In this document: positions 6,536 through 42,605 of the stretch, in pieces
Position numbering within the stretch: position 1 is the first letter of the stretch
How the letters are laid out: every line of letters begins with the position of its first letter
Origin: Flavobacterium sp.
GTDB lineage: Bacteria > Bacteroidota > Bacteroidia > Flavobacteriales > Flavobacteriaceae
Length of the DNA: 43,747 nucleotides
NCBI GenBank assembly: GCA_039933895.1
Contig: JBDTNG010000271.1
Location: 1 to 43,747 of the forward strand
Direction of reading: 5' to 3'
The notes under the pieces: generated by a model
Databases searched by the model: none
Told to the model about the DNA's origin: nothing
The model's input: only the letters and a program-made list of their open reading frames with translations
Made by a program: the position numbers and the translations under genes

Positions 6536-7633
6536 ATGAGTGTAACTAGAAATAATTGGACAAAAGAGGAAATCATTGCCATTTATAACAAGCCTTTAAT
6601 GGATTTGCTTTACGAAGCAGCAAGTATCCATAGAGAACATCACGACCCAAATGTCGTTCAAGTATCAACATTACTTTCTATAAAAACAGGTGGTTGTCCT
6701 GAAGATTGTGGTTATTGCCCACAAGCTGCACGTTACCATACTGATATTCAAGGAAATGATTTGATGAGTGTACAACAAGTGAAAGCACAAGCGCTACGGG
6801 CTAAATCATCAGGTTCTTCAAGAGTTTGTATGGGTGCTGCGTGGAGAAATGTGAAAGACGGTCCAGAATTTGATCAAGTATTGGAAATGGTGAGAACCAT
6901 CAACAAACTAGACATGGAAGTGTGTTGTACCTTAGGCATGATTACAGAAAATCAGGCACAGCGTTTGGCTGAAGCAGGACTGTATGCTTACAATCATAAT
7001 TTAGATACTTCTGAAGAATATTACAAAGAGGTCATCTCTACAAGAGGTTTTGAAGACAGAATTCAAACCATTGAAAACGTTAGAAAAACCAATGTTACTG
7101 TTTGTAGTGGCGGAATTATAGGTATGGGTGAAAGTGTTGAAGACAGAGCAGGAATGCTTGTTGCGCTATCTACTTTAAACCCACAACCGGAATCAGTACC
7201 TATCAATGCTCTTGTTGCTGTTGAAGGAACACCAATGGAAGAAGAAAAACCAGTTGAAATTTGGGAAATGATCCGTATGGTAGCTACCACTCGTATTATT
7301 ATGCCTGAAACACAGGTTCGCCTTTCTGCTGGAAGAATGAATATGACTAGAGAAGGACAAGCCATGTGCTTTTTTGCGGGCGCCAATTCTATTTTTGCTG
7401 GAGATAAATTATTGACAACGCCAAATCCAGATGTAAACGAAGACATGAAAATGTTTGAAATGCTTGGATTAAATCCACAAAAACCATTTACGAAGGTATC
7501 ACAACCTAAAACTATTGAAGCAGAAGATTCTCAATTTCAATCTTTAGGTGAAAAACCAAAATGGACGAGACCAAGTCACACCATTGACCGAAACATTGAA
7601 GTTTCCTTAAAAGGTAAAAACGAAAAAGTATAA
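6536..7633 (+). CDS. bioB: Biotin synthase
   Basis: Radical SAM CPEDCGYC; YNHNLDT; VCSGGIIGMGE; PESVPIN; RLSAGR. Confidence 0.98.
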   Translation: MSVTRNNWTKEEIIAIYNKPLMDLLYEAASIHREHHDPNVVQVSTLLSIKTGGCPEDCGYCPQAARYHTDIQGNDLMSVQQVKAQALRAKSSGSSRVCMGAAWRNVKDGPEFDQVLEMVRTINKLDMEVCCTLGMITENQAQRLAEAGLYAYNHNLDTSEEYYKEVISTRGFEDRIQTIENVRKTNVTVCSGGIIGMGESVEDRAGMLVALSTLNPQPESVPINALVAVEGTPMEEEKPVEIWEMIRMVATTRIIMPETQVRLSAGRMNMTREGQAMCFFAGANSIFAGDKLLTTPNPDVNEDMKMFEMLGLNPQKPFTKVSQPKTIEAEDSQFQSLGEKPKWTRPSHTIDRNIEVSLKGKNEKV

Positions 7634-8099: not shown

Positions 8100-8109
8100 C
8101 TAAACTAAG

Positions 8110-8228: not shown

Positions 8229-8633
8229 TTAATCTTGAATTTCTTGACACAATTCTATCAAGACACCATTAGTTCCTTTTGGATGTAAAAAGGCAACGAG
8301 TTTATTATCAGCGCCTTTTTTAGGAATTTCATTCAAAACAACAAAACCCTCAGCTTGCAAACGAGCAATTTCTAAGACAATATTTTCAACATCAAAGGCA
8401 ATATGGTGTATTCCTTCTCCTTTTTTTTCAATGAATTTAGCAATGGGGCTCTCAGGATTAGTAGCTTCAAGCAATTCTATTTTATTGGGACCGTTCATAA
8501 AAAAAGATGTCTTCACTCCTTCGCTTGCTACTTCTTCCTGTTTATAGGCCGGAGCACCAAAAAGTTTTTCAAAAAGAATATTTGACACTTCCAGATCTTT
8601 TACAGCAATTCCTATATGTTCTATTTTTCTCAT
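8229..8633 (-). CDS. mce: Methylmalonyl-CoA epimerase (VOC family)
   Basis: IEHIGIAV, KIELLE, GEGIHHIAF and FLHPKGTNGVLIEL motifs. Confidence 0.93.
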   Translation of the reverse strand: MRKIEHIGIAVKDLEVSNILFEKLFGAPAYKQEEVASEGVKTSFFMNGPNKIELLEATNPESPIAKFIEKKGEGIHHIAFDVENIVLEIARLQAEGFVVLNEIPKKGADNKLVAFLHPKGTNGVLIELCQEIQD

Positions 8634-8727
8634 TTAAACGTAATTTATAAAATTGGTCATTTTAAAACCTCAAGACATTCATTTCTAATATTTACACAAA
8701 GATAAATACTTTAAAACTTAAAAGTCG

Positions 8728-8735
8728 TATTTTTG
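8728..8735 (+). promoter_or_regulatory. Bacteroidota -7 element of rbfA (near-leaderless)
   Basis: TATTTTTG ending 5 nt before the ATG at 8740. Confidence 0.6.
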
Positions 8736-8739
8736 CAAT

Positions 8740-9132
8740 ATGGAAACAAATAGACAGAAAAAAATAGGTGGTGTTCTACAAAAAGATTTAGTAGACATCT
8801 TGCAAGGGGAAATCCGTAAAAATGGAATTACAAATCTTGTAATTTCAGTTTCTAAAGTTAGCGTTACAACCGATTTAGGTGTTGCCAGAGTTTATTTGAG
8901 TGTTTTTCCTCAAGACAAAGCACAAGAAATTTTGGAAGCTGTTAAGTCAAATATGCCTTTAATCAAACACGATTTATCTCAACGTGTTAAATTACAACTA
9001 CGAAAAGTACCAAACTTGTCTTTTTATATTGACGACAGTTTAGATTATATTGAAAAAATTGACAATGCGCTTGCTGGGAAAGAAAACCCAATCGAAAATC
9101 GTGATTTATTAGCAAAAAGAAAGAAATTTTAA
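8740..9132 (+). CDS. rbfA: 30S ribosome-binding factor A
   Basis: VTTDLGVARVYLS and LRKVPNLSFYIDDSL motifs. Confidence 0.96.
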   Translation: METNRQKKIGGVLQKDLVDILQGEIRKNGITNLVISVSKVSVTTDLGVARVYLSVFPQDKAQEILEAVKSNMPLIKHDLSQRVKLQLRKVPNLSFYIDDSLDYIEKIDNALAGKENPIENRDLLAKRKKF

Positions 9133-9133
9133 T

Positions 9134-18318: not shown

Positions 18319-19284
18319 ATGGATGATTCTCCGAAAAAATTTGACCGTGTTGTCGCTATTCTAATTCAATTGCAATCCAAAAAAATTGTAAAAGCACAGG
18401 AACTAGCCGATCGTTTCGATGTAAGTCTACGCACCATTTATCGCGATATTAGAACATTGGAAGCCTCAGGCGTGCCTATTTACAGTGAAGCAGGTGTTGG
18501 TTATACTTTAGTGGATGGTTATCGTTTGCCTCCCGTGATGTTTACCCGAGAGGAAGCCGGGAGTTTTATTGCCGCAGAAAAACTCATGCAAAAATTTACA
18601 GATACAACCTTGGGCAATCATTATGCTTCAGCGATGTACAAACTCAAATCGGTACTCCGAAGTACGGATAAGGATTGGATTTCGGCTATCGAATCTAAAA
18701 TACTAATGCAGCCTTCTCAAAAACTATTCAACGAAAAAGCACCTAATGCCTTAAACCTTCTTTTTGAAAGTATTGCCGAAAAAAAACAAGTTACTCTTTT
18801 ATATCAGGCTTTTGGCGCCGAAGAAAACATTGAAAGAGCTATTGAACCTGTAGGTGTTTTTCATGACAATAACTTTTGGTACGTATTTGGTTACTGTCAT
18901 TTGCGAAAAGATTACCGCCAATTTAGAACAGACCGAATTCAGGAGATTAAAAAAACTGAAAATCCTTTTACATTAGAACACAACACTTTGGAAACGTATT
19001 TAAATGAAGATAAAAACAAAGCCGTCACAAAAGTTCGTATTCTGATGAATAAAAAAGAAGCAAGATATCTTACTTGGGAACGAAAATACCACGGTTTTGT
19101 TTCGGAAAAAGACATGGGTGATCAATTGGAAATGACTTTTATGTGTCCCGATATTGAAGAAGGCTTTCCCCGCTGGTACATGATGTTTGGCGATTGTTGT
19201 ACCATACTAGAACCCGAAAGACTCAAAAAACGTGTATTGGAATTATTACAACTAAACAAAGACAAACTGCTACAAAAACAATAA
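18319..19284 (+). CDS. YafY-type HTH-WYL-WCX transcriptional regulator
   Basis: HTH_11 (LADRFDVSLRTIYRDIRTL), LPPVMFT linker, WYL domain (IEPVG...WYVFGYCHLRKDYRQFRTDRI) and C-terminal ILEPERLK. Confidence 0.95.
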   Translation: MDDSPKKFDRVVAILIQLQSKKIVKAQELADRFDVSLRTIYRDIRTLEASGVPIYSEAGVGYTLVDGYRLPPVMFTREEAGSFIAAEKLMQKFTDTTLGNHYASAMYKLKSVLRSTDKDWISAIESKILMQPSQKLFNEKAPNALNLLFESIAEKKQVTLLYQAFGAEENIERAIEPVGVFHDNNFWYVFGYCHLRKDYRQFRTDRIQEIKKTENPFTLEHNTLETYLNEDKNKAVTKVRILMNKKEARYLTWERKYHGFVSEKDMGDQLEMTFMCPDIEEGFPRWYMMFGDCCTILEPERLKKRVLELLQLNKDKLLQKQ

Positions 19285-19316
19285 TCCTGAAAACGGGTAC
19301 GTCATTTTCAGGATTA
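19282..19316. terminator. Hairpin between the convergent WYL and DinB genes
   Basis: 12-bp arms taatcctgaaaa/ttttcaggatta. Confidence 0.65.
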
Positions 19317-19323
19317 AGTCTAA

Positions 19324-19824
19324 TTATTTTGAGGCATTAACAACGTTGTAAAAATTGTAGTCCGTGTTTGATGCATCGGTAATACCAATATTTCTTCCAA
19401 TGGTCACGATTTGCCCTCGATGATATGTTCCATGATTGACTATCTGCATGAGATAATCGCATTTTGGCAATTCGCATTGAAACCAAGGGCTTTCAATTTT
19501 AACTTTTTCGGACAGTTCTTCTTCGGATAATGAGTCAATAAGTTTTGCTAATTCAGTTGATCTGTTTACTAATCCTTTCAATATTTCATCTGTTACTAAT
19601 TCGACATTTTCTCTTGTGTCAAATTCAGGAGTTTCTGCGATTATAGCATACCAATATTCTTCTGTGGCCCAAATATGATTCAGCGTTTTAATGATACTTG
19701 AATAACTTGAAGGCAGTTCCTTATGAAGTAATTCGTCTGATTTTGGCGAAAGCCAATTTGCAAATTGCTGATTTACCCAAACATTATAATTCGCATAATT
19801 TGTCATTAATTTCTTTAAGCTCAT
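19324..19824 (-). CDS. DinB/YfiT superfamily protein
   Basis: YNVWVN, SIIKTLNHI and NHGTYHRGQ (His triad). Confidence 0.92.
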   Translation of the reverse strand: MSLKKLMTNYANYNVWVNQQFANWLSPKSDELLHKELPSSYSSIIKTLNHIWATEEYWYAIIAETPEFDTRENVELVTDEILKGLVNRSTELAKLIDSLSEEELSEKVKIESPWFQCELPKCDYLMQIVNHGTYHRGQIVTIGRNIGITDASNTDYNFYNVVNASK

Positions 19825-19898
19825 GATGTATTGTTTTTGTTCGAATGAAAAAGAGTTGATTGATTTAGTATGACTGTTCGTTTTTATCTTTTAACTGA

Positions 19899-20387
19899 TT
19901 ATTGTCTTTCCCAGAAGAAAGGTGGTTCGATACCCAAAGCACGCAAATAAACGTATCCTTGTCCGCGGTGGTGCACTTCGTTATCAATAAAATAAAGAAT
20001 GTTATGAATGATTGGGAATTCGTATTGCCCGAAAAGATTGAAGGTTTCATTAAAATCTTCCACAGTTAATTTCTCCCAGTTTTCGTTAATTTCCTTGGTT
20101 GACTGATCCCATTTTTCCAAATATTGTGCTTTGGTTGTTAGATTGTCTGTTGCTTTTTCGGTAAAAGGCTCACTGATACGATTTACAATTCCATACAAAG
20201 CAGGTGAAGCAATAGCTAAAAGTTCGTCAGTCAACTTAGCAAACGTTCGCATTCCGGCGATAGAAAATTCGAAGAAATCTTTTTCAGGAAAAAGCTCAAT
20301 TGTACGACGGGTTAAAGCACGGTGTCCTTGCCAATGTTTTAATAAATCCTGAGAACTGATGACTTGTGGTACTGATAATGTGTCCAT
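19899..20387 (-). CDS. DinB/YfiT superfamily protein
   Basis: Start set at ATG 20387 (MDTLS); HWQGHRALTRR, GMRTF and DNEVHHRGQGYVYLRALGIEPP motifs. Confidence 0.92.
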   Translation of the reverse strand: MDTLSVPQVISSQDLLKHWQGHRALTRRTIELFPEKDFFEFSIAGMRTFAKLTDELLAIASPALYGIVNRISEPFTEKATDNLTTKAQYLEKWDQSTKEINENWEKLTVEDFNETFNLFGQYEFPIIHNILYFIDNEVHHRGQGYVYLRALGIEPPFFWERQ

Positions 20388-20416
20388 GATATTTGTTGTT
20401 TTAATTATTAATACTC

Positions 20417-20451
20417 CAAAATTAAAAGGGGTTGGTGACAACAGTTTGTCA
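20417..20451 (-). promoter_or_regulatory. Promoter of the DinB pair with a palindromic candidate WYL operator
   Basis: Minus strand reads TGACA-AACTGT-TGTCA-C-CAACCCCTTT-TAATTTTG: a TGACA-N6-TGTCA palindrome (20436-20451) followed by a TAnnTTTG -7 element. Confidence 0.7.
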
Positions 20452-20537
20452 GTAGTATTTTCCTTTTTTATTTTTTTTTTAAAATAAATTGAAAACAGAT
20501 GCTGAAGACTCTTATTTAAAAGCGAAAAAAATCTTCG

Positions 20538-20545
20538 TACCTTTG
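20538..20545 (+). promoter_or_regulatory. Bacteroidota -7 element of thiL
   Basis: TACCTTTG. Confidence 0.55.
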
Positions 20546-20577
20546 CCCCTTTATAACAAAAAATTAGTGACTGAAGC

Positions 20578-20601
20578 GATTGCTTCGTTCCTCGCAATGA
20601 C
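20578..20601 (-). repeat. REP-like element (GTCATTGCGAGG...GCAATC family)
   Basis: Reverse complement gtcattgcgaggaacgaagcaatc shares both ends with the copies at 38316 and 42538. Confidence 0.75.
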
Positions 20602-28113: not shown

Positions 28114-30681
28114 TTAGAAAATAATTTTTCTGGTCACTACAAGACCATCTTCTAAAGTTACTTTTACAATCAATGTTTGGTTGTTTTTCATGATCGAAGT
28201 CACTATAGATTGACTGGCATTTACTTTTTCATTGGTAGCTAAAACCTGCCCCAAAACATTATAAACAATATACTTTTTAATGTTTTCTACTTTGGAATCC
28301 ATTTTAATTTCATTGTTTGATGGGTAAATGAATACGCCATTTTCAATGTTAGAAGGATCTTGAGTCTGTAAGGACGGATCAGCATAACGCAACACGAAAC
28401 GATCATTAAACACTCCTGCTTCAGAAGAAAAACTATATGGAGCATTTTTTAAATCATGAATTACATGTAAGGTTTTATCTTCTAGATAAACATGCTGTTC
28501 TCCTGCAAACACCCCATCCAAATGATCAATACTTAACGTTAATGCTCCCAGAATATTAACTTTAAAACCTAATGGAACAACATCCTGATCCGAAAAAGGT
28601 AGTGCTTTGGCTTGTATTGTATACGATTCATTATTGATCAAACTATACAACACAAACTGATCGGCACCGTAATACAATCCGTCATACCCAGGATTATAAT
28701 CGTTTGTTGCTCCTTCAATATAACCAACTAATGCTTGGCTAAAATTGGAATTATTTTGAGTCGTCAAATTAAGCCATATTCTATTTCTTTCTACAACACC
28801 TTCTTCTGCTTTGGATGCATTACTGGTTTTATAGAAATTAGTATTATTAGTTCCAAGTCTCATAGTATTTCTGAAATCTACATTCCCAGCAGCGACAGTG
28901 TGAATAAAAAATCCTTGTCCGGCTGCCATATATTGAGTTGGCGCAGTGGTATTACCGGTTCCAGTTGAAACCGCAGTACCTCCAGAAAGGTTATACGTTG
29001 CATAATCTGTTGCTGTATAATTATTCGCACTTATAGCATGATTGTGCGTCCAAAGATACAGTGTTCCTGAAATCGTTTTATTGATAGTTCCAGTTCCTAT
29101 AACGTTGGCATTAATAAATGCATTAGCGTCTAAAGTCGATGGATATGGATTCCCTAACAATCGATTGGCAATAGGCGGTCCTAAAATTACAGCTACAGTA
29201 ACATTTCCATTATTGGGAACTCCAACAAATTGATGAGCCAAAACAGTCGGCACACTAGGACTTAATCCTTGAGGTGCTCGAATGGCATATCCAATTCCTT
29301 TTGTAAAAGTAACTACGTTGGGATTAGGATATGCCCACGCATTATTATAGGTAAGGAATTTATCCGGAAGTGTGCTAGGTGAAAAATTAAATAAGGTTTG
29401 GGATCCTGTTGTTGGTGAAGACCAAAAAGTATAATCAAAGGAAACAATAGGAGTCGAATTTCTGGTATAAGTAATATTCCCAGAGTTTGCCACACTATTA
29501 ACCTGAATCAAACTTGCATTATTATTAAAATTCAATGACCCTCCAGATACATTTACAGCATCGGTTACGGTTAGTGTATGTCCGGCATTGAATACAACAT
29601 TACCTGAATTCACAGTACAACTACATCCTGATAAATTTCCTGGTGAAGAATAATTGCCATTAAAGACCAGGTTTTTAGCTATCGAAGGCGCAACACTCCA
29701 TGACACTCCATTCCAAATTGCCGAAGCAGATACTATGACAACACTACCCGATGCCACTGAAGTACAAGTGCCATTAGAAACTGTAAAAGTGTAAGTCCCA
29801 GCTGCAAGTCCAGAAATAGTTGTAGTGGTTCCTGTTCCGGTAGTTGTTGCGCTGGATGTACCACTTCTTGTTAGCGTCCATGTACCACTGGCAGGTAATC
29901 CGCTTAAGTCTACACTTCCTGTTGCTAATGCACATGTAGGTTGTGTAATAGTTCCGACAACTGGCGCTGATGGCAATGGATTTACAGTAGCTACTACTGA
30001 TGTTCTTGGTGTGGTAAATCCACTTGAATTATAATACGCCTCTACATAATAAGTTGTTGTTGAAGCAATAACCGGAGTCACATAAGGATTTGCGCTTGAA
30101 AAAGAAACCCCCCCACTAGGAACAGTATACCATTTAATGGCCGCACCACTCGCTGGAATGGGTATTGCCGTTAAAGTAAAACTTCCTGAACCACAAACGG
30201 CAGTTGGTGAAACCTTAGCTGTAACAATATTATATCCTCCTTGATCTAACAATTGTTCAAAGCTATAATCGGCTCCTGGACCATTACCGTTGCAACTTGC
30301 TAATAAATCGGTTCCAATATAAATTCTTTCTGAAGCATTACAAGAACCTCCAATAAGACCAGCACCTGGCATAAAAATAAGAGAAGAACCAGTAGCAAGT
30401 GTCAAATAGCTGTTTCCAGGTGAAAAATCTAAAGAAGCTGCATTTCTAACAATCAGTTGTATGGGACCCAGACAGGTTAAGTTTAATGAAGCGTCCATGT
30501 TAAGTACCATAGCGGCTGATCCATCCCCTATGTATACAATTCCTCCGCACCCACTTAATGGAGCGACTCCGCAAGTTAAAGCACTTGAATTTATTGATGA
30601 TGTAATGGAACATTGTGCAACTAGATTTTCGGAAAAACCTATTGACAACAATAGCGAAAATAATAGTAATTTTGATCTCAT
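28114..30681 (-). CDS. T9SS-secreted modular surface protein (Ig-like modules; C-terminal domain possibly of ChiA/type C)
   Basis: Signal peptide; WYT...TTTYYVEA Ig-like module; QPTC repeat; FWSSP, LLGNPYPS and GQGFF motifs; C-terminus LIVKVTLEDG...RKIIF. Confidence 0.85.
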   Translation of the reverse strand: MRSKLLLFSLLLSIGFSENLVAQCSITSSINSSALTCGVAPLSGCGGIVYIGDGSAAMVLNMDASLNLTCLGPIQLIVRNAASLDFSPGNSYLTLATGSSLIFMPGAGLIGGSCNASERIYIGTDLLASCNGNGPGADYSFEQLLDQGGYNIVTAKVSPTAVCGSGSFTLTAIPIPASGAAIKWYTVPSGGVSFSSANPYVTPVIASTTTYYVEAYYNSSGFTTPRTSVVATVNPLPSAPVVGTITQPTCALATGSVDLSGLPASGTWTLTRSGTSSATTTGTGTTTTISGLAAGTYTFTVSNGTCTSVASGSVVIVSASAIWNGVSWSVAPSIAKNLVFNGNYSSPGNLSGCSCTVNSGNVVFNAGHTLTVTDAVNVSGGSLNFNNNASLIQVNSVANSGNITYTRNSTPIVSFDYTFWSSPTTGSQTLFNFSPSTLPDKFLTYNNAWAYPNPNVVTFTKGIGYAIRAPQGLSPSVPTVLAHQFVGVPNNGNVTVAVILGPPIANRLLGNPYPSTLDANAFINANVIGTGTINKTISGTLYLWTHNHAISANNYTATDYATYNLSGGTAVSTGTGNTTAPTQYMAAGQGFFIHTVAAGNVDFRNTMRLGTNNTNFYKTSNASKAEEGVVERNRIWLNLTTQNNSNFSQALVGYIEGATNDYNPGYDGLYYGADQFVLYSLINNESYTIQAKALPFSDQDVVPLGFKVNILGALTLSIDHLDGVFAGEQHVYLEDKTLHVIHDLKNAPYSFSSEAGVFNDRFVLRYADPSLQTQDPSNIENGVFIYPSNNEIKMDSKVENIKKYIVYNVLGQVLATNEKVNASQSIVTSIMKNNQTLIVKVTLEDGLVVTRKIIF

Positions 30682-30912
30682 AATATCTTGTTTTTAAGTG
30701 AATTTTTCAATTAAAAAAAAATACAATCGATCTTTGGGAAGTGAAGAACGTAAAAATAAAAACACGTAATAAAACGTGATTATCTTTTTTGGAAATTATT
30801 AATTTCGCGGTATCTGATTCAAAAATACAATATTAAATCAAAAAAATATTATGCTGTGACGAATTCTAGTTCAAGTGCAATGTTTTGACGTTAACCAGCA
30901 ATTATTTAAAAC

Positions 30913-30942
30913 AAAAACCCGTTCGATGTGAACGGGTTTTTT
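30913..30942. terminator. Rho-independent terminator
   Basis: aaaaacccgttc-gatgt-gaacgggttttt. Confidence 0.88.
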
Positions 30943-30959
30943 GTTTCTGATCTAAAAAT

Positions 30960-33900
30960 TTAGAACATAATTTTTCTGGTTATTACATAACCATTTTCTA
31001 AAGTTACTTTTACAATCAAAGCTTGGTTGTTCTTCAAAATAGAAGTTACCACTGATTGGTTCGCATTTAATTTGTCTTTGGTTGCTAGAACCTGACCTAG
31101 GACATTGTAAACAACATAACCTTTAATATTCTCTTCTTTTGAACCAATTTTTATTTCATTGTTTGACGGATAAACTGCTACACCATTTTCAATACTAGAA
31201 AAATCTTGAGTCTGTAAAGCCTGATCTCCGTAACGCAATACAAAACGATCATTTATGATTCCTTGATTTGTGGTAAACATATATGGAGCAACCGTAATAT
31301 CATTGATAGTATTCATCAGTTTATCTTCAATATATATTTTTTGTGACGTTGTTTTAAACAATCCGTCAACAGCAGCGATAGCAATAGTATACGTTCCATT
31401 TGTAGGTACTTTAATTCCCATTGGTACAATATCATTAGCATCGAATGGCAAACTTCTCCCTTGAATAGTCATCGGATCATTACTGATAAGTGAATAGAAA
31501 TTTTGATTGTTTTTATAATCTGCGAAAGCATCAAACAATCTGTCTCTTCCAGCAGTTGCGCCTTCAACATAAGCAACCAAAGTTCTTGTTGTTTCTCCTG
31601 TAGCAGAAACCAAATCCATCCAAATTCTATGGTGCTCCAAATCTGTATCTAAATTCTGAGAATCATTTTGAAGATTTGAAGATTTATAAAACTGACTGTT
31701 TGAGAACGCTGTATTTCGCATCGCATTATTAAATGTAACCGAACTTGTAGTGGCTGCACCTGGGTTCATCAATACAAAAAATCCTTGTCCTGCTCCAATT
31801 ACACTCAATACACCAGGACCACTTGTGGCTCCAGCTCCATTAACAGCAATATAATCTGAGGCTGTATAATTAGAAGTGAAATTACCATAATACGGATTTG
31901 AAGTGCCTGCATTTGGCAATGTACCATGTGTCCAAAGTCTCACAAATCCATCAATCTCTGAATTGGCAGCTAAGAAAGCACCAATTCCTATCGCTGAAGG
32001 ATATGGATTTCCTAGTAAGTTCCAATTATCATCTGTTGTTGTTCTTAAAACGCCGTTTGGACCATTACTTCCTGCTCCTAAATCACTTCCGCGACTTATG
32101 GCTGGTGTTACTACACCATTATTAGGTACTCCTGTAAAATTAGCAGTATATGGTGTTGTACTAGAATTACTATATCCGTTAGGGGCTCTCACAATATATC
32201 CTTCACCTAAATTCATATTTCCTAATCCACTCTCCCAATATCCTTGTCCTCCATTTGAATTGACAACTGTTGGGTTCCATTTCCAAATTGCATTAGATGG
32301 TGTACTTGGTGAAACATTCGCTACAGCAAAACCTGCTACTGGTGATGACCAATACACATAATCCTGTAGTTTAACGTTCGTCGTACGGTGCATCACGATG
32401 TTCCCTGTATTTACGCCTGTATCATTAACTTGAACTAACGATCCATTATTTTGAATATCTAAAGTTCCACCAACCGTTACGGTTACATTATTTTGAACAT
32501 TAAGATACATTCCATCTGTAATGGTGGCCGTAAATCCTGTATTAACAAACAAACTATTTGCATCAATATTTCCATTCGTTGTTGTATTATAGTTTCCGTT
32601 AATTACACCAACTGTATTTAATGTTGGCACTCCATTTGACCAAGCTGAACCATTCCAAACTGTCGCACAAAATACTTCCAGATCATCAAATCTCCATGGT
32701 GAGGTAGTCGCTGACGTTTTAACGAAGCGAATCCAAACATTAGGATAAATAGTATAAGCCGACAAATCAACAACATATTGGTTGTAAGAAGCTGAAGGTA
32801 CATTCGAATGATCATATGTTGCAATAGCTGCAAAACCTGTTGTTTGTGATGTTGTTGAAATTTCAACTGTAAGTGTTTTTGCCGAAGCATTCCCAGATCT
32901 TCCTAAGTAAAAACGAAGTTGCGTCGGATTGGTAACCATACTTGTAGTCAAAGATCCATTGTTTGAAGCAAATGTTGCTGCAGCAGGTCCTGTATTATAA
33001 TCTCCTACGGTAGTACTTCTCGTAACGCTAGTTGCTAACCATCCTGCTGGAGGAAAAGTAACTGAGGTGAAACTATCATTTAAACATGGAGGAACGGTAA
33101 CCACTTGATTTTGATTTACATCCACAGCTGCCGCATAATTCCCATTTCCTGTTTGAGAGGCTGTAATAATTGCTGTTCCAACACCTACAATTGTTACTGT
33201 GTTTCCAGCAACTGTTGCAACTGCTGGGTTTGAGCTCACATATGTAACAGTCAAACCTGAACTGGCTGTTGCGGTAAGGTTAAAATTGGCCGCTCCTGTA
33301 TATTGATTAACTAGTGGATTAAAAGTAATGGTTTGAGAAGCCTGAGTAATATCGGCAGCTAAACCTGTTGGCTGTGTCAGACTATAATTGCTTGAATCTG
33401 CACCAGAAATCGTACTTGTTGAGGTAACTGCAATAGCCGTTCCTGCATTTGCAGTAGCGAATGTTCCTGATGGCGTAATATTAACAACATCCGGAGCAAT
33501 AACACCTACTAATGTAGCGCCAGTGATCGTAGCCACAGTCGTTCCATTGTATACTTTATTATTGGCAACAGCACCTGAAACCGTTAATGGTTTTGCAGTG
33601 ATATTAGCTGTGAATCCTGTAGGTTGGCTTACTGTATAATTAGCAGCTTGTGCTCCAGAAAGTGTGTATCCAGAAACTGTAACTGGTTTTGCCACTCCTA
33701 CAATCACTGTAGCGAAAGTAGGCAATGGTGTTCCCGAAACGGTCACATCATCTGAGCCAACAATACCTACCAAAGTAGCTGTTCCTGATAAAGTAGCAGT
33801 AAGTGTTCTATCATACACCTTGTTATCAGCTGTTAATCCTGTTATTGTTAAGTTTTTGGCAGTAATGGTCAATACTAATGTTTTCGTATCAGTAGTTCCA

Positions 33901-35897
33901 TTCGTTGCCGATATATCGATATTATACGTACCAACACCCACTGTAGGTGTTCCAGATATAATTCCAGTATTTGTATCTACCGTTAATCCTGCTGGCAATC
34001 CTACTGCATTATAGCTTGTTGGAGAACCAGAAGCAGTAATGGTATAAGAATAAGCACTCCCATAAACTGACGAAGAGGTTAAACTACTTGTAACAACTAC
34101 TGCTGATGCTGTAGTAGTACAATTTGTTGAAGGAATAACGCCTCCAGTATAGTAATTAATTGCTTGTGGTACACTCAAATAATCATCCCAAGGAATTAAT
34201 GTAAAATAATAATTTGTTCCCGGTGTAAGTCCTGTTACCGAAAAAGTAGTGTCAGTTCCTAGCAATGAAGTACTTCCAGCAACCGTTGCATCTCCAAAAA
34301 CAGTTCCAGGTGTGTGATAAGCACCATCTGTTGGAACTCCTGTTGGAACTGAACCAATTTTTTGTAATATTATGTAAGCCCTACCATTGGTAATGGTATT
34401 GGCAGCCGAAAAAGTAAGATCTATTTGAGTACTTGAAACAGTATTACAAGTAAAACTTGCTGCATGTGCTGTTGGCTCTAAACTCAAAGTGTAAAAAGTT
34501 GTACTAACTGGAGATGCTGTATTATAACAATTTGTTGCACTGTTATACTCGTATGCTGTAACCGTATATTGTGTACCAGGTGTTAAACCAGTTATTGGTC
34601 CCACAGTAGTTCCTGCAGCACTAAAAATCACTCTGTTATTTGCATCTATTTGTCCGGCTAAAGCCCAAGCCAAGTTCGCTGTATAAGGTGTGCCACTTGA
34701 AGGTAAAGTATTTGCTGATGCTGTAGGACGAACCACAATCATAGTTCCAGTACCGTTCCCAGCTGTCCAGTTTACATTACAACCATCAGTAGTTATTATG
34801 TTTGTTGAGATTGCTGAAGCTTGTGTTGATGGTGGTGTACAAGCTGTAGACAACCATTGTGCGTATAAAGTTGTATTTGCAGCAATGTTAAAAGTGTTTC
34901 CTGCCACATAAGATGTACCTGAACCATTCGCTAAAGTATTCCACCCATTAAATGAATAACCTGTTTTCGTCAAACTATTTACATTGCCAAGAACCGTAAC
35001 CGTTGCACCTGAGTTGTATGGACTACTAGCATCAACCGGAACAGTTCCTCCATCATTGGTATTACCGTTGTAAGTCACTGAATAGGTTATTGGAATAGCA
35101 TTATAAATCTTAACGTCATCCACAAAAACATTTGCAACATTAGCCGTACTGCTAATCCCAATAAAAGTAGTAGAGTTAATGGCTGTATTATTAGGCAATG
35201 CAGCCTTAGGCAAATCATCCCCCACCAAAGTTCCATTTATAAAGAGATCAAAAGTATTTATTGCAACCGTATTAACAGTAACCCCATAGTTATAATTGAT
35301 TGTACCAGTTGCCTTATTGTTAGCAAAAATTTCAACAGTATAAACTGTTCCTTGATTCAATGAAGTCGTTGTTAACCCTGTTGTGTTCCATGCAGCACCA
35401 TTTCTGTTCAGTATTGAAACTACTCCTGCACCATAAGTAAAACGCAATCCTGTAAAAACCTGAGCTCCAGCAAAGTCATTAGCATCAGAATACATTGCAC
35501 CATTTCCTTGATAAAATGACCAAATTCCCGACGCAGCAGTTGTTCCTGCAGAAGCATCTCCGAAAAGCACTTTAAAAGAGGTATAAAATTCTGTTCCAGA
35601 GGTATAACCAACAGCTGGAGAGAATTTCGATACTGATGTACTAGTTGAAGATACTGCTCTAACATAAGCTCCAGTAGTCCCCAAAGGATTAGATGCTGTT
35701 ACTAGATTTATTGGTGCATTAGGAACAGTAACTCCTCCTCTTGCCCAAGTTGTCCCAGATGTTGGATTGGGAATAAATGCTGTACTCCCTGTACCTGAAG
35801 TATGAGAACCTGTGCCTGCTCCAAAATTTTGAACAGAGGTCTGACCCCAGCTCATCACACTAAACAACAGTGAAAAAATAAGTAATTTAATCTTCAT
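30960..35897 (-). CDS. Large T9SS-secreted adhesin-like protein (InlB B-repeat, two FN3-like, Ig, two YDG-type and Big-like modules)
   Basis: KTGYSFNGWNT...TLYAQW; two GLTPGT.Y; GLPAGL...GIISGTP; NKVYD and NKVYNG; YWSSP, LLGNPYPS, GQGFF; C-terminus ...RKIMF. Confidence 0.88.
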   Translation of the reverse strand: MKIKLLIFSLLFSVMSWGQTSVQNFGAGTGSHTSGTGSTAFIPNPTSGTTWARGGVTVPNAPINLVTASNPLGTTGAYVRAVSSTSTSVSKFSPAVGYTSGTEFYTSFKVLFGDASAGTTAASGIWSFYQGNGAMYSDANDFAGAQVFTGLRFTYGAGVVSILNRNGAAWNTTGLTTTSLNQGTVYTVEIFANNKATGTINYNYGVTVNTVAINTFDLFINGTLVGDDLPKAALPNNTAINSTTFIGISSTANVANVFVDDVKIYNAIPITYSVTYNGNTNDGGTVPVDASSPYNSGATVTVLGNVNSLTKTGYSFNGWNTLANGSGTSYVAGNTFNIAANTTLYAQWLSTACTPPSTQASAISTNIITTDGCNVNWTAGNGTGTMIVVRPTASANTLPSSGTPYTANLAWALAGQIDANNRVIFSAAGTTVGPITGLTPGTQYTVTAYEYNSATNCYNTASPVSTTFYTLSLEPTAHAASFTCNTVSSTQIDLTFSAANTITNGRAYIILQKIGSVPTGVPTDGAYHTPGTVFGDATVAGSTSLLGTDTTFSVTGLTPGTNYYFTLIPWDDYLSVPQAINYYTGGVIPSTNCTTTASAVVVTSSLTSSSVYGSAYSYTITASGSPTSYNAVGLPAGLTVDTNTGIISGTPTVGVGTYNIDISATNGTTDTKTLVLTITAKNLTITGLTADNKVYDRTLTATLSGTATLVGIVGSDDVTVSGTPLPTFATVIVGVAKPVTVSGYTLSGAQAANYTVSQPTGFTANITAKPLTVSGAVANNKVYNGTTVATITGATLVGVIAPDVVNITPSGTFATANAGTAIAVTSTSTISGADSSNYSLTQPTGLAADITQASQTITFNPLVNQYTGAANFNLTATASSGLTVTYVSSNPAVATVAGNTVTIVGVGTAIITASQTGNGNYAAAVDVNQNQVVTVPPCLNDSFTSVTFPPAGWLATSVTRSTTVGDYNTGPAAATFASNNGSLTTSMVTNPTQLRFYLGRSGNASAKTLTVEISTTSQTTGFAAIATYDHSNVPSASYNQYVVDLSAYTIYPNVWIRFVKTSATTSPWRFDDLEVFCATVWNGSAWSNGVPTLNTVGVINGNYNTTTNGNIDANSLFVNTGFTATITDGMYLNVQNNVTVTVGGTLDIQNNGSLVQVNDTGVNTGNIVMHRTTNVKLQDYVYWSSPVAGFAVANVSPSTPSNAIWKWNPTVVNSNGGQGYWESGLGNMNLGEGYIVRAPNGYSNSSTTPYTANFTGVPNNGVVTPAISRGSDLGAGSNGPNGVLRTTTDDNWNLLGNPYPSAIGIGAFLAANSEIDGFVRLWTHGTLPNAGTSNPYYGNFTSNYTASDYIAVNGAGATSGPGVLSVIGAGQGFFVLMNPGAATTSSVTFNNAMRNTAFSNSQFYKSSNLQNDSQNLDTDLEHHRIWMDLVSATGETTRTLVAYVEGATAGRDRLFDAFADYKNNQNFYSLISNDPMTIQGRSLPFDANDIVPMGIKVPTNGTYTIAIAAVDGLFKTTSQKIYIEDKLMNTINDITVAPYMFTTNQGIINDRFVLRYGDQALQTQDFSSIENGVAVYPSNNEIKIGSKEENIKGYVVYNVLGQVLATKDKLNANQSVVTSILKNNQALIVKVTLENGYVITRKIMF

Positions 35898-37033: not shown

Positions 37034-38182
37034 TTAAAGTTTGCTGCTTAAAAGTACACTCACCGCATTACCACCAAAACCAACAGCGTTTATCAATACC
37101 TTTCTAATGGCTTTTCGTTCTTGCTGCTCAGCTGCAAAAGGTACCTTGATAAACTTTTGATGTTGCAGCATCATAACAGCCAATTCAATACTTAATATTC
37201 CTGAAGAACCAAAAGTATGGCCTATTTTCCATTTGTTGGTCGTTAACATCGGAAGCTCAGTGCCGAATACTTTTTGTATCGCTTTGTATTCTGACAAATC
37301 CCCTTTTATGGTTCCTGGAGCGTGCATTACAATGACATCCACTTCAGATAAAGGAGTATTTTCCAAAGCCATCTTCATCGATTTCTGAAAGCATTCCGCT
37401 TCCGTAGAAATAGAAATATTGTGCTCTAAAATATCAGTAGCATAACCAATGCCTTCAATATAAGCCAAAGCATTTTCTTTTTCTCCCATTTCCAAACAAG
37501 CCATAGCCGCACCTTCTCCCAATATCATAGCGTTTTGTTTTTTCTCCAAATCGAAAGAACGACATTCAGGGCTTTTGGCATAAATCTTCAAAGCCTGCAT
37601 TTGAGCAATCGTAAAAGCTGTCAAAGGCGCTTCACTTCCACCCACTAAGAACTTATCTACCATTCCGGCACGAAGCCAGGCGATTCCATTTAAGATGGCA
37701 TGTAATGCTGTCGAACAAGTTATGGAATGGGAAACTTCTGGTCCTACTGCTTTCAAATCATGGGCAATCCAAGAGGAAATATTCCCTAATGTGGTAGTAG
37801 GCGAAGCCAATGTGGCGGTTTTTCCGGTTTGAACAAATTCCTGATGGTGTTTCTCAAACAATTCGGTGGCACCACGCGAAGAACCCACATTGATCCCGAA
37901 AACAGCATCCTCCGACCAACCTGCCTTTTTTATGGCTTCCCTTGAAGCTAAAATACCATACAGAACAGAATTGTCTAATGCTTTATATTTGGTTTCAGAA
38001 GTGCGCAACTGCGCCACCATTTCCTGCAACTCATTCGGAATTGTGGCAACCGGAACAGTTTGATTGCCTATTTGTTTTTCCGTAATCCTCGACGTTTCTT
38101 TCAGGTATTCGGCCCAAATCAATTCAGGTTTATTTCCTAAAGAAGAGAACGACGACAAGGCAGTAATGGCGATTGGTTTCAA
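37034..38182 (-). CDS. FabF/FabB-type beta-ketoacyl synthase, biotin-cluster associated
   Basis: Cys156 (SITCST), His287 (MHAPGT) and His322 (KWKIGH); GGSEA, LGEGAA and GFGG motifs; TTG start. Confidence 0.92.
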   Translation of the reverse strand: MKPIAITALSSFSSLGNKPELIWAEYLKETSRITEKQIGNQTVPVATIPNELQEMVAQLRTSETKYKALDNSVLYGILASREAIKKAGWSEDAVFGINVGSSRGATELFEKHHQEFVQTGKTATLASPTTTLGNISSWIAHDLKAVGPEVSHSITCSTALHAILNGIAWLRAGMVDKFLVGGSEAPLTAFTIAQMQALKIYAKSPECRSFDLEKKQNAMILGEGAAMACLEMGEKENALAYIEGIGYATDILEHNISISTEAECFQKSMKMALENTPLSEVDVIVMHAPGTIKGDLSEYKAIQKVFGTELPMLTTNKWKIGHTFGSSGILSIELAVMMLQHQKFIKVPFAAEQQERKAIRKVLINAVGFGGNAVSVLLSSKL

Positions 38183-38388: not shown

Positions 38389-39660
38389 CTAAACGATAGT
38401 CAAAGCTTCTTCTATAGTTTGGTATACTTTTTCCAACTGCGTATTTGAAATCACATACGGCGGCAAAACATAAACTATATTGCCAACAGGGCGCAAAATG
38501 ATGCCTTTGTCGATGAAGAAATTATACAGTTTGTTGCGTAAATTACCATAATAACTTGCTGCCGATTCCGTCTTAATTTCGAGCGCAAAAATAACGCCGA
38601 GTACACGAGTGGTTTTTATTTTTGGATGGTTTTTAATTTTGTACTGAAAGGCCAAATGTTGTTGATTGATTCTTTGAATATTCTCTTGCATTTCTTCCGA
38701 TTCCAACAATTGCATACTGGCCAAAGCGGCCGCACAACCTGTTGGATTCGCCGTAAATGTATGTCCGTGGAACAAAGCTTTATTGATATCATCATCATAA
38801 AATCCATCGAAAATCTGTTGTGTAAAAGTGGTAATCGCCATTGGAATGGTTCCGCCTGTTAACGCTTTCGACAAGCACATCATATCGGGTTGTGTTTGCA
38901 AATAATCGCAAGCAAAGTTTTTTCCTGTTTTTCCAAAACCGGTCATGACTTCATCGGCAATGGTAAAAACCTGGTGTTCCTTACACATGGTAATCAACAC
39001 ATCCAATGCTGCTGCTTCATACATGACCATGCCTGCAGCACCTTGTACTAAAGGCTCAAAAACAAATCCAGCAAACTCATTAGTGTTCATGCATTTTTCC
39101 AGCGCCTCATAACTGGTTTTCTCATTCCCTTTTGTGGGAACAGGAATACGTATAACTTCGATTAAAGAACCCTGGAAAGCTTCCGTAAAAAAGGAAATGC
39201 CACTGGCAGCCATGGCGGCAAAAGTATCTCCATGAAAAGCATTTTCGAAGGCTATTATCTTAGTTCGTTTTTCTCCTTTGTTGTAAAAATATTGTAGCGC
39301 TACTTTAATCGCAATTTCTACAGCAGTTGACCCATTATCGGAAAAAAACAATTTCTTTTGGTTGTTGGGCAAAATGGTCATTAATTTCTCCGCCACTTGC
39401 ACCGCCGGCTCGTGTGTGAAACCACCAAACAAAACATGTTCTAAAGTCATGAGTTGTTTGTAAATGGCGTCTGCGATAAAAGTGTTGGAATGTCCATACG
39501 GATTCACCCACCAAGAAGCAATCGCATCGATGTATTCTTTACCGTTTTCGTCCCAAAGCAAGGCTGCTTTCCCTTTCGTAATAGCAATGTGAGGTTGGGC
39601 AGTTTTATGTTGTGTATAGGGATGCCAATTGTACTGGATGTCTCTTTCGGATAAATTCAT
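38389..39660 (-). CDS. bioA: Adenosylmethionine--8-amino-7-oxononanoate aminotransferase
   Basis: WHPYTQ, DAIASWW, SDNGSTAVE, FHGDT, IADEVMTGFGKTG, LSKALTGG and HGHTF motifs. Confidence 0.98.
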   Translation of the reverse strand: MNLSERDIQYNWHPYTQHKTAQPHIAITKGKAALLWDENGKEYIDAIASWWVNPYGHSNTFIADAIYKQLMTLEHVLFGGFTHEPAVQVAEKLMTILPNNQKKLFFSDNGSTAVEIAIKVALQYFYNKGEKRTKIIAFENAFHGDTFAAMAASGISFFTEAFQGSLIEVIRIPVPTKGNEKTSYEALEKCMNTNEFAGFVFEPLVQGAAGMVMYEAAALDVLITMCKEHQVFTIADEVMTGFGKTGKNFACDYLQTQPDMMCLSKALTGGTIPMAITTFTQQIFDGFYDDDINKALFHGHTFTANPTGCAAALASMQLLESEEMQENIQRINQQHLAFQYKIKNHPKIKTTRVLGVIFALEIKTESAASYYGNLRNKLYNFFIDKGIILRPVGNIVYVLPPYVISNTQLEKVYQTIEEALTIV

Positions 39661-39748: not shown

Positions 39749-40375
39749 TTATAAACTCAATAGATTGTCTCTAAATTTATCGGCGTAATATTGTATTACA
39801 TTGGAATCAAAGTACGGTTCTTCTTCAATTCTTCCAATTAATTTGAGTCCTGTTTTCTTTAAAATAATAGCTTCTGAAGATGCATTTTCATCACCGGAAA
39901 AAATAATCCCAGCCACCGTCAGTTTTCTGTTTTGTAATGCTTCAACTGTAAGTAACGTATGGTTGATGCTTCCCAAATAATGTCTGGAAACCACAATAAT
40001 TTTGTAGTCTTTTTGAATCAAATCAATAACCGAATCGGTATCATTTAACGGAACAAGAATACCTCCAGCGCCTTCAATGACCAAATTGTTTTTAGTAGCA
40101 GGTTCTTTTATTTTTTTAAGATCCAAAGCAATTCCATCTAAGGCTGCAGCCAAATGTGGACTCGCTGGTGTATTCAATTGATAGCTGTTTTCGTGCACTA
40201 CCGTTTTGTCATTCGAAATGTAATTCTTAATTTTATGACTGTCCGAGTATTCTAAATCTCCCGCTTGTATGGGTTTCCAATAATCGGCCTCTAGCGCTTC
40301 TGTGATGATGGCAGATGCAATAGTTTTGCCTACATCAGTTGATATTCCCGTAATAAATAGTTTTGTTGTTTTCAC
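39749..40375 (-). CDS. bioD: Dethiobiotin synthase
   Basis: TGISTDVGKT, YWKPIQAG, SPHLAA, EGAGG and LGSINHTLLT motifs; GTG start. Confidence 0.97.
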   Translation of the reverse strand: MKTTKLFITGISTDVGKTIASAIITEALEADYWKPIQAGDLEYSDSHKIKNYISNDKTVVHENSYQLNTPASPHLAAALDGIALDLKKIKEPATKNNLVIEGAGGILVPLNDTDSVIDLIQKDYKIIVVSRHYLGSINHTLLTVEALQNRKLTVAGIIFSGDENASSEAIILKKTGLKLIGRIEEEPYFDSNVIQYYADKFRDNLLSL

Positions 40376-40400: not shown

Positions 40401-40820
40401 TTAATTATTTATATCAAATTCGAAATGACAAGAATCACATTTGTATTTGTGCTTGGCATGAAAGGGTAATAGCGCAATAAGCATTGTAAAAATAAACGAC
40501 AAAAACGATTTGACATCAGTAATTGAAGTGACCATATCAACCTGTTTTTCACCACATCTTGGACATTGAATTAACTCATTGTTTGCATCTAATGAATATT
40601 GGCTAATTCCTGAAAGAATGTGTGTGGCTTTCAGAAGGTCTTTATTCATTACAAACAATTTCACACCGCCTACCGCATTACTATAGATTGGATTAGAATC
40701 TACCGTATTGTTGTCGCGCATAAAAACTTCAATGCCTTCTGATTCTAATTTTCCTTTGAAAATAACAGCTTCAGAAGAATATTGAAAAGTGGCTATTTTT
40801 TGAAAAGTGGTTTCGTCCAT
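40401..40820 (-). CDS. DUF2007-like protein with a split zinc ribbon around a hydrophobic segment
   Basis: EAVIFKGKLESEGIEVF...GGVKLFV...DLLKA; CPRCG...TM...CDSC. Start set at ATG 40820. Confidence 0.82.
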   Translation of the reverse strand: MDETTFQKIATFQYSSEAVIFKGKLESEGIEVFMRDNNTVDSNPIYSNAVGGVKLFVMNKDLLKATHILSGISQYSLDANNELIQCPRCGEKQVDMVTSITDVKSFLSFIFTMLIALLPFHAKHKYKCDSCHFEFDINN

Positions 40821-40824
40821 AATA

Positions 40825-41970
40825 TTAAAAAACAAAGTTACTCAACAATTGCAATACTTTAGAGATTTCTTCTTTAGAATTATAACTGTGGAGGCAAATT
40901 CGAAGTCTTTCTTGTCCTTCTGGAACTGTTGGTGATAAAATAGCTTTGACATCAAACCCTTTTACCTGCATTTGTTGTGCTATCGATTTGACCTTTTCAT
41001 TTCCAGGAATGATAGCCGATTGTATGGAAGATTTACTTCTGACGAATATCGGTTTCAATCCCAATAAATTCTTCTCTTGATTGAAGTGAATAATGTTTTC
41101 GCGAAGCTGATTTATATTTTGCCCTTCGGTTTCTAAACTTTGGTATGCCACTAAAATGGTCGCTATCGAATGTGGCGGAAGTCCAGTTGTATAGACAAAA
41201 CTTCGGGCAAAATTGACCAAATAGTCTTTCAATTCCTGACTTCCTAAAATAGCAGCACCGTGACAACCCAATCCTTTTCCAAAAGTCATGATTCGGGCAA
41301 AAATTTGACTCTGAAGTCCCAAACTCTGAATTAATCCTTCTCCTTTGTCACCAAAAACACCTAAAGCATGGGCTTCATCAACCACCAGAAGGGTATTGTA
41401 TTTTTGTGTCAATTCGGTCATTCTTTCCAAATCCGGGCAATCGCCATCCATAGAAAAAATGCTTTCTGTAACAATATAAATTTCGCTTTCTTCCGATTTA
41501 AATTTTTGAATCAAATGCTCTAAATCCTCCAAATCGTTATGCTCAAACTTATAAGATTTTGCGTTCGATAATTGAATGCCATCGCGAATGGAAGCATGAC
41601 ACAACGTATCGTATAGAATCACATCGCTTCGCTGTGGAACAGAACTAAAAAATCCAACATTCGCATCGTAACCGGAGTTAAACAATAGGGCTGATTCAGT
41701 TTGATGAAAATTAGAAATAAAAGATTCAGTTTCCGGATATAATGTATGATTTCCGGAAAGTAAACGCGAACCGGTAGCACCGTTAGTTTTGATATTCCTA
41801 TCAAGTAAGAGTTGGTGTGTTTTTTGGAAAATAGTTTCAGAATGCGAAAATCCCAAATAATCATTAGACGCAAAATCGATAAGATCTTTGGAAGACGGTA
41901 AAGTACGCAAGGCATTGTTTTGCTTGCGTTGGTCTAATTTTATTTGGAGTGATTTTGGAAATTGTTTCAT
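40825..41970 (-). CDS. bioF: 8-amino-7-oxononanoate synthase
   Basis: DFASNDYLG, GSRLLSG, SGYDAN, HASIRDG, ESIFSMDGD, DEAHA, TFGKG and PTVPEGQERLR motifs. Start set at ATG 41970. Confidence 0.95.
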   Translation of the reverse strand: MKQFPKSLQIKLDQRKQNNALRTLPSSKDLIDFASNDYLGFSHSETIFQKTHQLLLDRNIKTNGATGSRLLSGNHTLYPETESFISNFHQTESALLFNSGYDANVGFFSSVPQRSDVILYDTLCHASIRDGIQLSNAKSYKFEHNDLEDLEHLIQKFKSEESEIYIVTESIFSMDGDCPDLERMTELTQKYNTLLVVDEAHALGVFGDKGEGLIQSLGLQSQIFARIMTFGKGLGCHGAAILGSQELKDYLVNFARSFVYTTGLPPHSIATILVAYQSLETEGQNINQLRENIIHFNQEKNLLGLKPIFVRSKSSIQSAIIPGNEKVKSIAQQMQVKGFDVKAILSPTVPEGQERLRICLHSYNSKEEISKVLQLLSNFVF

Positions 41971-41974
41971 AGGG

Positions 41975-42472
41975 TTATTTTTCAATCCATTTTGAATCAC
42001 CTTTCACAGTGGCATCTAACAAATCTAAATTTAATTTATCTGAGAATTTTTTACCACATTCGAAAGCTTGCTCAAATTTTTCAAAGCTGTCTATACCAAG
42101 ATGTTTATTCTTTTTATACCACAGATTTACCTCATGTTCTTCTGAACTTGTATTCCTGAACACTGAAATATATTTTAAATCAGTAATCCTTTCAGCATCA
42201 AATTTCAATGTTCCAATACTAAATTCAATTTTGAGACTTTTGCTTTTAACATCTAAGATTATTGTTCTGATTGTAGAAAAAATTACTGCTCCCAAAATCA
42301 ACAATAACCCCAACTCAAGAAATCTATTCCCTACAGCAATCCATCTGATAGACCAATAATGAAACACTAAATAAAAAACATAAATTGAGCACGTATATAG
42401 AATTGAAGCTAAAACGAGTTGCCAAAAAGGCTTTTTATTTTTACTTATTATTATCTCTTCTGGGGTTTTCAT
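41975..42472 (-). CDS. Hypothetical membrane protein (two TM helices plus a beta-rich C-terminal domain)
   Basis: 165 aa; ends 4 nt before the bioF ATG. Confidence 0.75.
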   Translation of the reverse strand: MKTPEEIIISKNKKPFWQLVLASILYTCSIYVFYLVFHYWSIRWIAVGNRFLELGLLLILGAVIFSTIRTIILDVKSKSLKIEFSIGTLKFDAERITDLKYISVFRNTSSEEHEVNLWYKKNKHLGIDSFEKFEQAFECGKKFSDKLNLDLLDATVKGDSKWIEK

Positions 42473-42485: not shown

Positions 42486-42503
42486 TTAAAGGTGCTGGGA
42501 ATT

Positions 42504-42605
42504 TAGCCCAGATAGCAGCGGCATCCTTTTTCTTTTTGTCATTGCGAGGAGGAACGACATGGCAATCTAAAAGTAAAAGATAGAGCGGATAACTGGAATA
42601 GCTCC
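42504..42605 (+). ncRNA. Structured element resembling the Flavo-1 RNA motif, copy B, with REP-like insert
   Basis: tagcccagatagcagcggcatcctttt...aaaagatagagcggataactggaatagctcc. Confidence 0.6.

Follow-up and report, generated by a model that had tools for sequence, protein, structure and literature searches.

The stretch of DNA analyzed here, referred to below as the window, comprises 43,747 nucleotides of a Flavobacterium contig and carries on its minus strand a 382-amino acid ORF with a TTG start (37034..38182), which encodes a ketoacyl synthase of the FabF fold belonging to a biotin cluster (hereafter KAS). On the same strand, the order is bioF (40825..42000), a DUF2007-like ORF (40401..40835), bioD (39749..40375), bioA (38389..39660) and then KAS, and these coordinates agree with the initial annotation, which had placed KAS directly downstream of the other four. 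Both bioA (TIGR00508, 544 bits against a cut-off of 405) and bioD (TIGR00347, 125 bits against 83) score above their models, while the DUF2007 match is weak (20.5 bits versus 25.7). For bioF, TIGR00858 is the top match at 353 bits, below the cut-off of 426, and the assignment is supported by its location next to bioD and bioA. The remaining ring gene, bioB, recognized by its Radical SAM and BATS domains, lies on the plus strand of the same window (6536..7633), about 29 kb from KAS, and recX is convergent with KAS on its 3′ side. The claim that no acp, fab, bioC, bioH or bioW gene is nearby was borne out by the scan, which took in 34 of the 53 ORFs listed for the window and detected no P450 family either; the other 19 are frames overlapping scanned genes, short frames, or the end of atpD. 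The window also contains no adjacent ketosynthase partner subunit or dedicated ACP, the hallmark of type II polyketide KS-CLF pairs and of AmcF-AmcG.

KAS is separated from bioA by a gap of 206 bp, for which a structured element had been noted. The element is present, but it corresponds to a Flavo-1 RNA repeat (RF01705; 38278..38382, plus strand, 76.2 bits against a gathering threshold of 42) that occurs genome-wide, and not to a biotin-specific regulator. Partial copies are found on 13 contigs of the same genome, leading to the rejection of a biotin riboswitch at this site; this reading is also countered by the orthologous gaps, 35 of 158 of which span 50 bp or less (median 121 bp, as estimated from aligned starts). 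A second Flavo-1 copy is located at 42501-42603 on the plus strand, upstream of a 165-amino acid ORF that overlaps the start of bioF, and the two repeats are thus interleaved with the bio cluster of the window. Scans for sigma-70 promoters and terminators performed at chance level (18 versus 19.2 and 2 versus 4.6, respectively), and no terminator was called within the gap. An exact TAnnTTTG motif is absent inside the bioA-KAS gap.

At the protein level, both the N- and C-terminal ketoacyl-synt domains of Pfam match the KAS ORF. Its top NCBIfam model is fabF (TIGR03150), although a score of 147 bits, where the cut-off is 494, marks the protein as divergent from FabF, and a weak match to an AmcF-AmcG-type model is also detected (79.6 bits against 325). 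An AlphaFold2 model built from 149 sequences (pLDDT 97.3, pTM 0.95) has FabF as its top structural match in both Foldseek and VIA (VIA Z 53.1, rmsd 1.9 over 373 residues; Foldseek TM about 0.9; PDB 1KAS and 9LPL), while identity to E. coli FabF (b1095) amounts to 22%. The catalytic apparatus of the KAS I/II fold is complete. As previously claimed, the triad is intact, with the nucleophile Cys156 (37715..37717; E. coli Cys163), His287 within the motif HAPGT (37322..37324; His303) and His322 (37217..37219; His340), all of them minus-strand codons whose positions were computed from the ORF start, and the motif NKWKIGH reads as described. Lys317 corresponds to FabF Lys335, the GFGG gate loop is kept, with Phe369 equivalent to Phe400, and both catalytic histidines together with Lys317 are invariant in the family alignments. 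At the positions of the ACP-FabF interface taken from the available text of PMC7138838, Lys or Arg is found among 149 rows in 104 at Arg206, 89 at Lys128 and 78 at Arg68 (52-70%). On the other hand, Pro289 replaces FabF Thr305, Val367 replaces Phe398, and loop-2 Asp265 is mostly Glu or shifted in the family, changes that could denote a chemistry other than condensation.

BLASTP and MAFFT alignments to E. coli FabF (locus L159, mature numbering) give the same placement as the by-eye alignment of the initial annotation, with Arg103 (codon CGT, 37874..37876, minus strand) at the position of Ile108. In FabF, the acyl pocket has the Ile108-Phe202 pair as its back gate, and an Ile108Phe substitution lessens long-chain elongation and yields shorter products (bioRxiv 2021.02.13.431092, PMC5206705, each as far as its accessible text goes). 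The arginine of KAS is accompanied by a set of near-invariant swaps from FabF (Leu111 to Thr106, Val134 to Ser127, Ile138 to Thr131, Ala162 to Thr155 and Gly201 to Gln194), Phe202 is changed to Met195, and the polar residues Ser102 and Thr130 stand at FabF Gly107 and Thr137. By alignment, then, KAS departs from a housekeeping FabF in lacking the hydrophobic pocket with Ile108, having Arg103 and polar neighbors instead, and in falling below the TIGR03150 cut-off. The geometry of this pocket and the direction of the Arg103 side chain are what we infer from the alignment.

KAS belongs to a family of at least 150 members among representatives clustered at 50% identity, and those covering the Arg site are 37-67% identical. 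Conservation of the arginine, which the initial annotation had made a test of its proposal, is complete both in the distant representatives that cover the site (147/147; 150 examined, three of them fragments) and in the individual loci that do so (224/224; 225 examined, a few genomes having been fetched twice). None of 25 control ketosynthase rows, two of which are the same gene, has Arg at the Ile108 position, where they carry Ile (9), Val (5), Ser (3), Lys (3), Met (3), Gln (1) or Tyr (1); the three lysines indicate that a basic residue alone is no proof of carboxylate binding. In locus L042, what looked like Ile at position 103 came from a canonical FabF also located there and represents no true family variant. 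In agreement with the expectation that orthologs would form their own clade, the family is resolved as one clade apart from FabF (26 family and 25 control rows; FastTree support 0.981), and a canonical FabF coexists with a family member in two genomes (G120 and G502). The nearest named relatives of the window protein are from Flavobacterium (64-82% identity). In a phylum-wide sample of 400 genomes, matches were found in 20 of 28 genomes of the Flavobacteriaceae and in 4 of the 372 others, and all four members outside Flavobacteriaceae keep the arginine and are placed within a bio cluster or next to bioA/bioF.

Several minor observations concern the extent of the family. One member (P0213) is named from a Candidatus Dadabacteria assembly, and the family may therefore reach beyond Bacteroidota. 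Another (L240 in G486, 7745-9322) has a lengthy insertion of low-complexity repeats ahead of the Arg motif, and in four genomes (G374, G377, G384 and G415) the family gene was matched in two pieces. A search for fused forms yielded, as weak evidence, one UvrA-KAS chimera and seven distant proteins of 773-778 amino acids with 22-26% identity, none of these longer candidates carrying a Bio domain; the chimera (P0275), from an animal assembly, is probably bacterial contamination. A separate clade of ketosynthases from multi-KAS clusters (L004, L259 and L260) has Lys at the Ile108 site (STTKGN), which suggests another polar-pocket specialization.

The association of KAS with biotin genes was analyzed in 160 Flavobacteriaceae genomes, one per genus and at least 97% complete. 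Of the 103 genomes that encode KAS, 96 have it no more than 10 kb from bioD, and in the other 7 it is farther away than that or on another contig. In the closest loci, bioA is present in 79 of 80, the remaining one having KAS at a contig edge, and the proposal that orthologs stay linked to bio genes is thereby upheld. At least one bio gene is detected in 71 of 80 metagenome loci, most misses having short upstream sequence, while L177, with 3.9 kb upstream of KAS and no bio genes therein, is a true detachment. The order bioF-bioD-bioA-KAS-bioB recurs in many genera, and in 21 loci bioB follows KAS on the same strand at a distance of 28-265 bp. Among the 45 commonest ORF clusters of 181 loci, whose identities were judged from BLAST labels and sequence heads, no ACP, methyltransferase, esterase, CoA transferase, ligase or P450 was recognized. 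The DUF2007 ORF, considered as a possible required part, was rejected as a variable passenger (39/181 loci). A 289-amino acid ORF follows bioB in 18 of the 181 loci (e.g., L147 9326-10195 and L283 2334-3209), and two of its members gave no NCBIfam match.

The co-occurrence with bioD is nearly complete. KAS is found in 103 and bioD in 105 of the 160 genomes, with both genes present in 103, KAS alone in none, bioD alone in two and neither in 55; these are given as counts with no P value, since the genomes are related and the 103/55 split does not represent 160 independent events. The two exceptions carry an alternative pimelate route inside their bio cluster. In G304 (L138, 7349-12775), the order is bioF, a 213-amino acid gene in the esterase slot, bioC and bioD, with BioC over the cut-off. 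In G440 (L139, 5393-11666), a MocR regulator and a 211-amino acid gene, which shares 54% identity with its positional counterpart in G024, precede bioF, a layout that fits the bioL-bioE arrangement in the available part of PMC12704756 and by which the gene is considered bioE-like. Ring genes of the bioC-type cluster of G304 are 32-35% identical to those of the window and those of the bioE/MocR-type cluster of G440 39-63%, the range for KAS-type clusters being 41-87%; both clusters may possibly have been replaced by transfer.

The initial annotation had asked whether the synthase anticorrelates with bioC, bioH, bioW and bioE; for BioC over the cut-off, BioW and BioE-like genes, no co-occurrence was found. 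BioC is over the cut-off in none of the 103 KAS genomes, with up to 15 methyltransferase candidates scored per genome, and sub-cut-off matches of 86-88 bits were obtained in G342 and G403. BioW is missing from all 160 genomes, BioE-like proteins from all 103, and 44 of the 103 lack P450 altogether. This genome-wide search for rival routes covered the BioC, BioW, BioE-like and P450 families. In the genome of the window itself, BioC, BioW, BioE-like and P450 gave no match, the BioC and esterase-slot proteins of G304 had no tblastn match, and 14 weak methyltransferase matches reached at best 58 bits against the BioC cut-off of 185; this assembly is 72.6% complete, so its blanks count little and the argument rests on the near-complete relatives. 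A further constraint comes from six genomes with bioB and no bioD (G048, G490, G323, G395, G435 and G446), four of them among the 55 double negatives and two further Flavobacterium, which are likely dethiobiotin scavengers of the kind described in the accessible text of PMC9561691. None of them has KAS, which places its action upstream of dethiobiotin.

The co-occurrence with bioD, the exclusion of BioC and BioE, and an active site for condensation that bears a charged cap are most simply accounted for together by a dedicated synthase of an unmethylated chain. We consider it probable that KAS is the biotin cluster's own ketosynthase and makes the C7 pimeloyl precursor by elongating an unmethylated dicarboxylic chain; the substrate, the role of the arginine and the product are what we infer from these data. 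In such a mechanism, a primer with a free carboxyl would first move onto Cys156, and its omega-carboxylate would be bound by Arg103 together with Ser102, Thr106, Ser127, Thr130, Thr131, Thr155 and Gln194 (Ile108, Gly107, Leu111, Val134, Thr137, Ile138, Ala162 and Gly201 in FabF, respectively). Malonyl-ACP decarboxylation and C-C bond formation would then proceed via His287, His322 and Lys317, and the cycle would be completed by the housekeeping FabG, dehydratase and enoyl reductase. The Arg cap would finally halt growth at C7, leaving BioF, BioA, BioD and BioB to complete biotin. With an Arg-capped C7 product that has a free carboxyl, neither BioC methylation nor BioH-type demethylation would be needed.

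An odd-carbon primer is required, namely malonyl or glutaryl. The initial annotation had proposed a convergent FabF-fold analogue of BioZ acting on unmethylated chains; linkage, clade, arginine and the exclusion of BioC, BioW and BioE-like routes support this general reading, while its strict form with glutaryl-CoA becomes one of two options. We hold tentatively, as a serious possibility short of an even chance, that a malonyl primer undergoes two rounds (C3 to C5 to C7) on a single Arg-capped FabF-fold enzyme that stops at pimeloyl. The strict analogue of BioZ, itself a sub-case of the unmethylated-chain synthase, would instead perform one condensation of catabolic glutaryl-CoA and malonyl-ACP, yielding 3-oxopimeloyl-ACP, and we regard it as possible and only slightly less likely. 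Glutaryl-CoA dehydrogenase is encoded in 150 of the 160 genomes and in 100 of the 103 with KAS, which favors the glutaryl start and counts against malonyl, and the genome of the window carries this enzyme and saccharopine dehydrogenase. According to the available part of PMC7645780, the free-carboxyl C7 product is processed by E. coli FabG, FabA and FabI, and no BioZ product is obtained from malonyl-CoA; a type II ketosynthase, AmcF-AmcG, accepts a C5 dicarboxylic acyl-ACP (PMC10698177, accessible text). The site of the Ile108 gate also seems better suited to a C5 than to a C3 carboxylate.

Against the glutaryl-CoA start stand three genomes (G303, G325 and G401) that keep the full biotin pathway and in which none of the six glutaryl-CoA-related families searched was found: glutaryl-CoA dehydrogenase, saccharopine dehydrogenase, kynureninase, CaiB-type transferase and Orn/Lys/Arg decarboxylase gave no match, and no lysine aminotransferase was over the cut-off. 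In the same search, four of the six families were detected in genome G011, the aminotransferase cut-off and the decarboxylase giving no positive in any tested genome. In addition, no recurring CoA transferase or ligase was recognized in the clusters of the 181 loci, and the usual substrate of FabF-type enzymes is an acyl-ACP, not an acyl-CoA. The three complete-pathway genomes incline us to malonyl over a BioZ-like glutaryl-CoA start, although they are drafts of 20-40 contigs, and bioC bioH mutants of E. coli are complemented by BioZ, so glutaryl-CoA can be enough even in traces. A pimelate route from three malonates is an old idea that was dropped because fatty-acid enzymes were thought intolerant of a free carboxyl (PMC7645780, available part). 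If true, the two-round malonyl start would realize it and would represent a fifth entry into biotin synthesis, free of SAM, esterase, oxygenase and lysine catabolism.

Other roles for KAS fare worse. It is unlikely that KAS serves pimelate supply as a transacylase, for example by moving pimeloyl from ACP onto CoA where BioF is specific for CoA, or as a chain-shortener, and forms no C-C bond. A CoA-specific BioF has some precedent, as that of Elizabethkingia appears to be so (PMC12704756, available part), and the pantetheine-site and gate residues are unlike those of FabF (Pro289 and Val367). Nevertheless, decarboxylative condensation depends on the two histidines and Lys317, all of them invariant; among BioC, BioE-like and BioW, the 103 genomes yielded no further gene for making pimelate; and the clusters of G304 (bioC) and of G440 and G024 (bioE-like) do without KAS.

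Lower still, and improbable in our view, is the elongation by KAS of methyl esters made by an unrecognized BioC substitute, with an equally unrecognized esterase elsewhere in the genome. E. coli elongates its methyl-ester intermediates with the housekeeping synthases and no dedicated KAS, and such a route would not need an invariant arginine. The weak methyltransferase matches of the window's genome and those below the cut-off in G342 and G403 would be compatible with it, and unrelated BioC substitutes (Tam-like, BioT) exist, as stated in the accessible portion of PMC12704756; against this, no recurring methyltransferase or esterase was recognized in the 181 loci, and the G304 pair gave no tblastn match in the window's genome. 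Finally, a late or side step (a BioB accessory, lipoate or lipid metabolism) with KAS merely sharing the locus could be read from its frequent position directly upstream of bioB and its occasional detachment, but is very unlikely given its presence in 103 of 105 bioD genomes and its absence from 6/6 bioB-only and 55/55 bioD-less genomes.

Among known systems, one close in concept to the proposed unmethylated-chain synthase is BioZ, an alpha-proteobacterial KAS III (PMC7645780, PMC8024396). As far as the available parts of these reports indicate, both are condensing enzymes in a bio cluster of genomes without recognized BioC, and in both a free omega-carboxylate is proposed to be held by Arg plus Ser/Thr residues. 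The claim that the BioZ arginine holds the carboxylate is nevertheless softer than the initial annotation had it: in the accessible text of PMC8024396 the contact rests on docking, and R147A is partly active while S84A and S287A are not. The two enzymes differ in fold and triad, KAS being of the FabF/FabB type with Cys-His-His and BioZ of the FabH type with Cys-His-Asn, and the KAS III Pfam domain does not match the KAS ORF. They also differ in the site of the arginine, which here occupies the Ile108 gate, in the host phylum, here Bacteroidota, and in that some KAS carriers appear to lack the lysine-catabolic genes on which BioZ depends. With FabF (KAS II), KAS shares the fold, the catalytic residues and the GFGG loop, but it has the polar Arg pocket, forms a separate clade and is not beside acpP/fab genes.

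A 3-oxoacyl-ACP synthase within a bio operon has a precedent in Desulfovibrio (Rodionov et al. 2004, PMC545781), whose extended operon, per the available text, lacks bioC, bioH, bioG and bioW and was proposed as a new pimeloyl route; compared by description only, it includes its own ACP, reductase and dehydratase, whereas KAS stands alone. AmcF-AmcG of cispentacin synthesis (PMC10698177) is likewise a type II ketosynthase elongating a free-carboxyl C5 dicarboxylic acyl-ACP, but, from what its accessible text describes, it is a heterodimer with a cyclization factor, with a dedicated ACP and ligase, in secondary metabolism, and no such partner genes occur here. The BioE-BioL system of Weeksellaceae (PMC12704756, PMC12915131, in part), in related Bacteroidota, occupies the same place in the pathway, with bioF, bioD, bioA and bioB as neighbors; BioE is a diiron oxygenase that cleaves long chains, a protein unrelated to KAS, and the BioE-like gene and KAS are mutually exclusive in the 160 genomes. 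No description of this KAS family was found in the full-text literature searched, a coverage that leaves out most subscription journals. The available parts of PMC9909488, on Balneolaceae bioC clusters, and of PMC13336041, on Streptomyces antibiotic clusters, do not cover it, and the protein atlas contains only generic names for the family.

In Flavobacteriaceae, KAS is a widespread candidate for the pimelate step that has been missing. According to the accessible text of PMC9561691, 69.3% of Flavobacteria have all four ring genes, in line with the presence of bioD in 105 of the 160 sampled genera (about two thirds); 103 of these 105 had no recognized pimelate-making route, and for them KAS now names a candidate. 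If true, KAS would be an added route beside BioC-BioH, BioI-BioW, BioZ and BioE, and carboxylate binding would have arisen convergently on a second condensing-enzyme fold. Under the same condition, it could take over from the BioC/BioH pair, which is costly in SAM, in strains used for biotin production and provide a template for dicarboxylic acid-making synthases.

Apart from the biotin genes, the window contains, between recA and recX, two large secreted-looking proteins of 855 and 1645 amino acids (28114-35897, minus strand) with Ig-like, YDG and fibronectin type III repeats and similar C-terminal regions. On the plus strand, the gene at 16869-18209 encodes a protein that resembles Peptide-N-glycosidase F and ends in a C-terminal sorting domain of the secretion-system type. 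At 18319-20597, a WYL-domain HTH regulator is followed by two DinB-family genes on the opposite strand.
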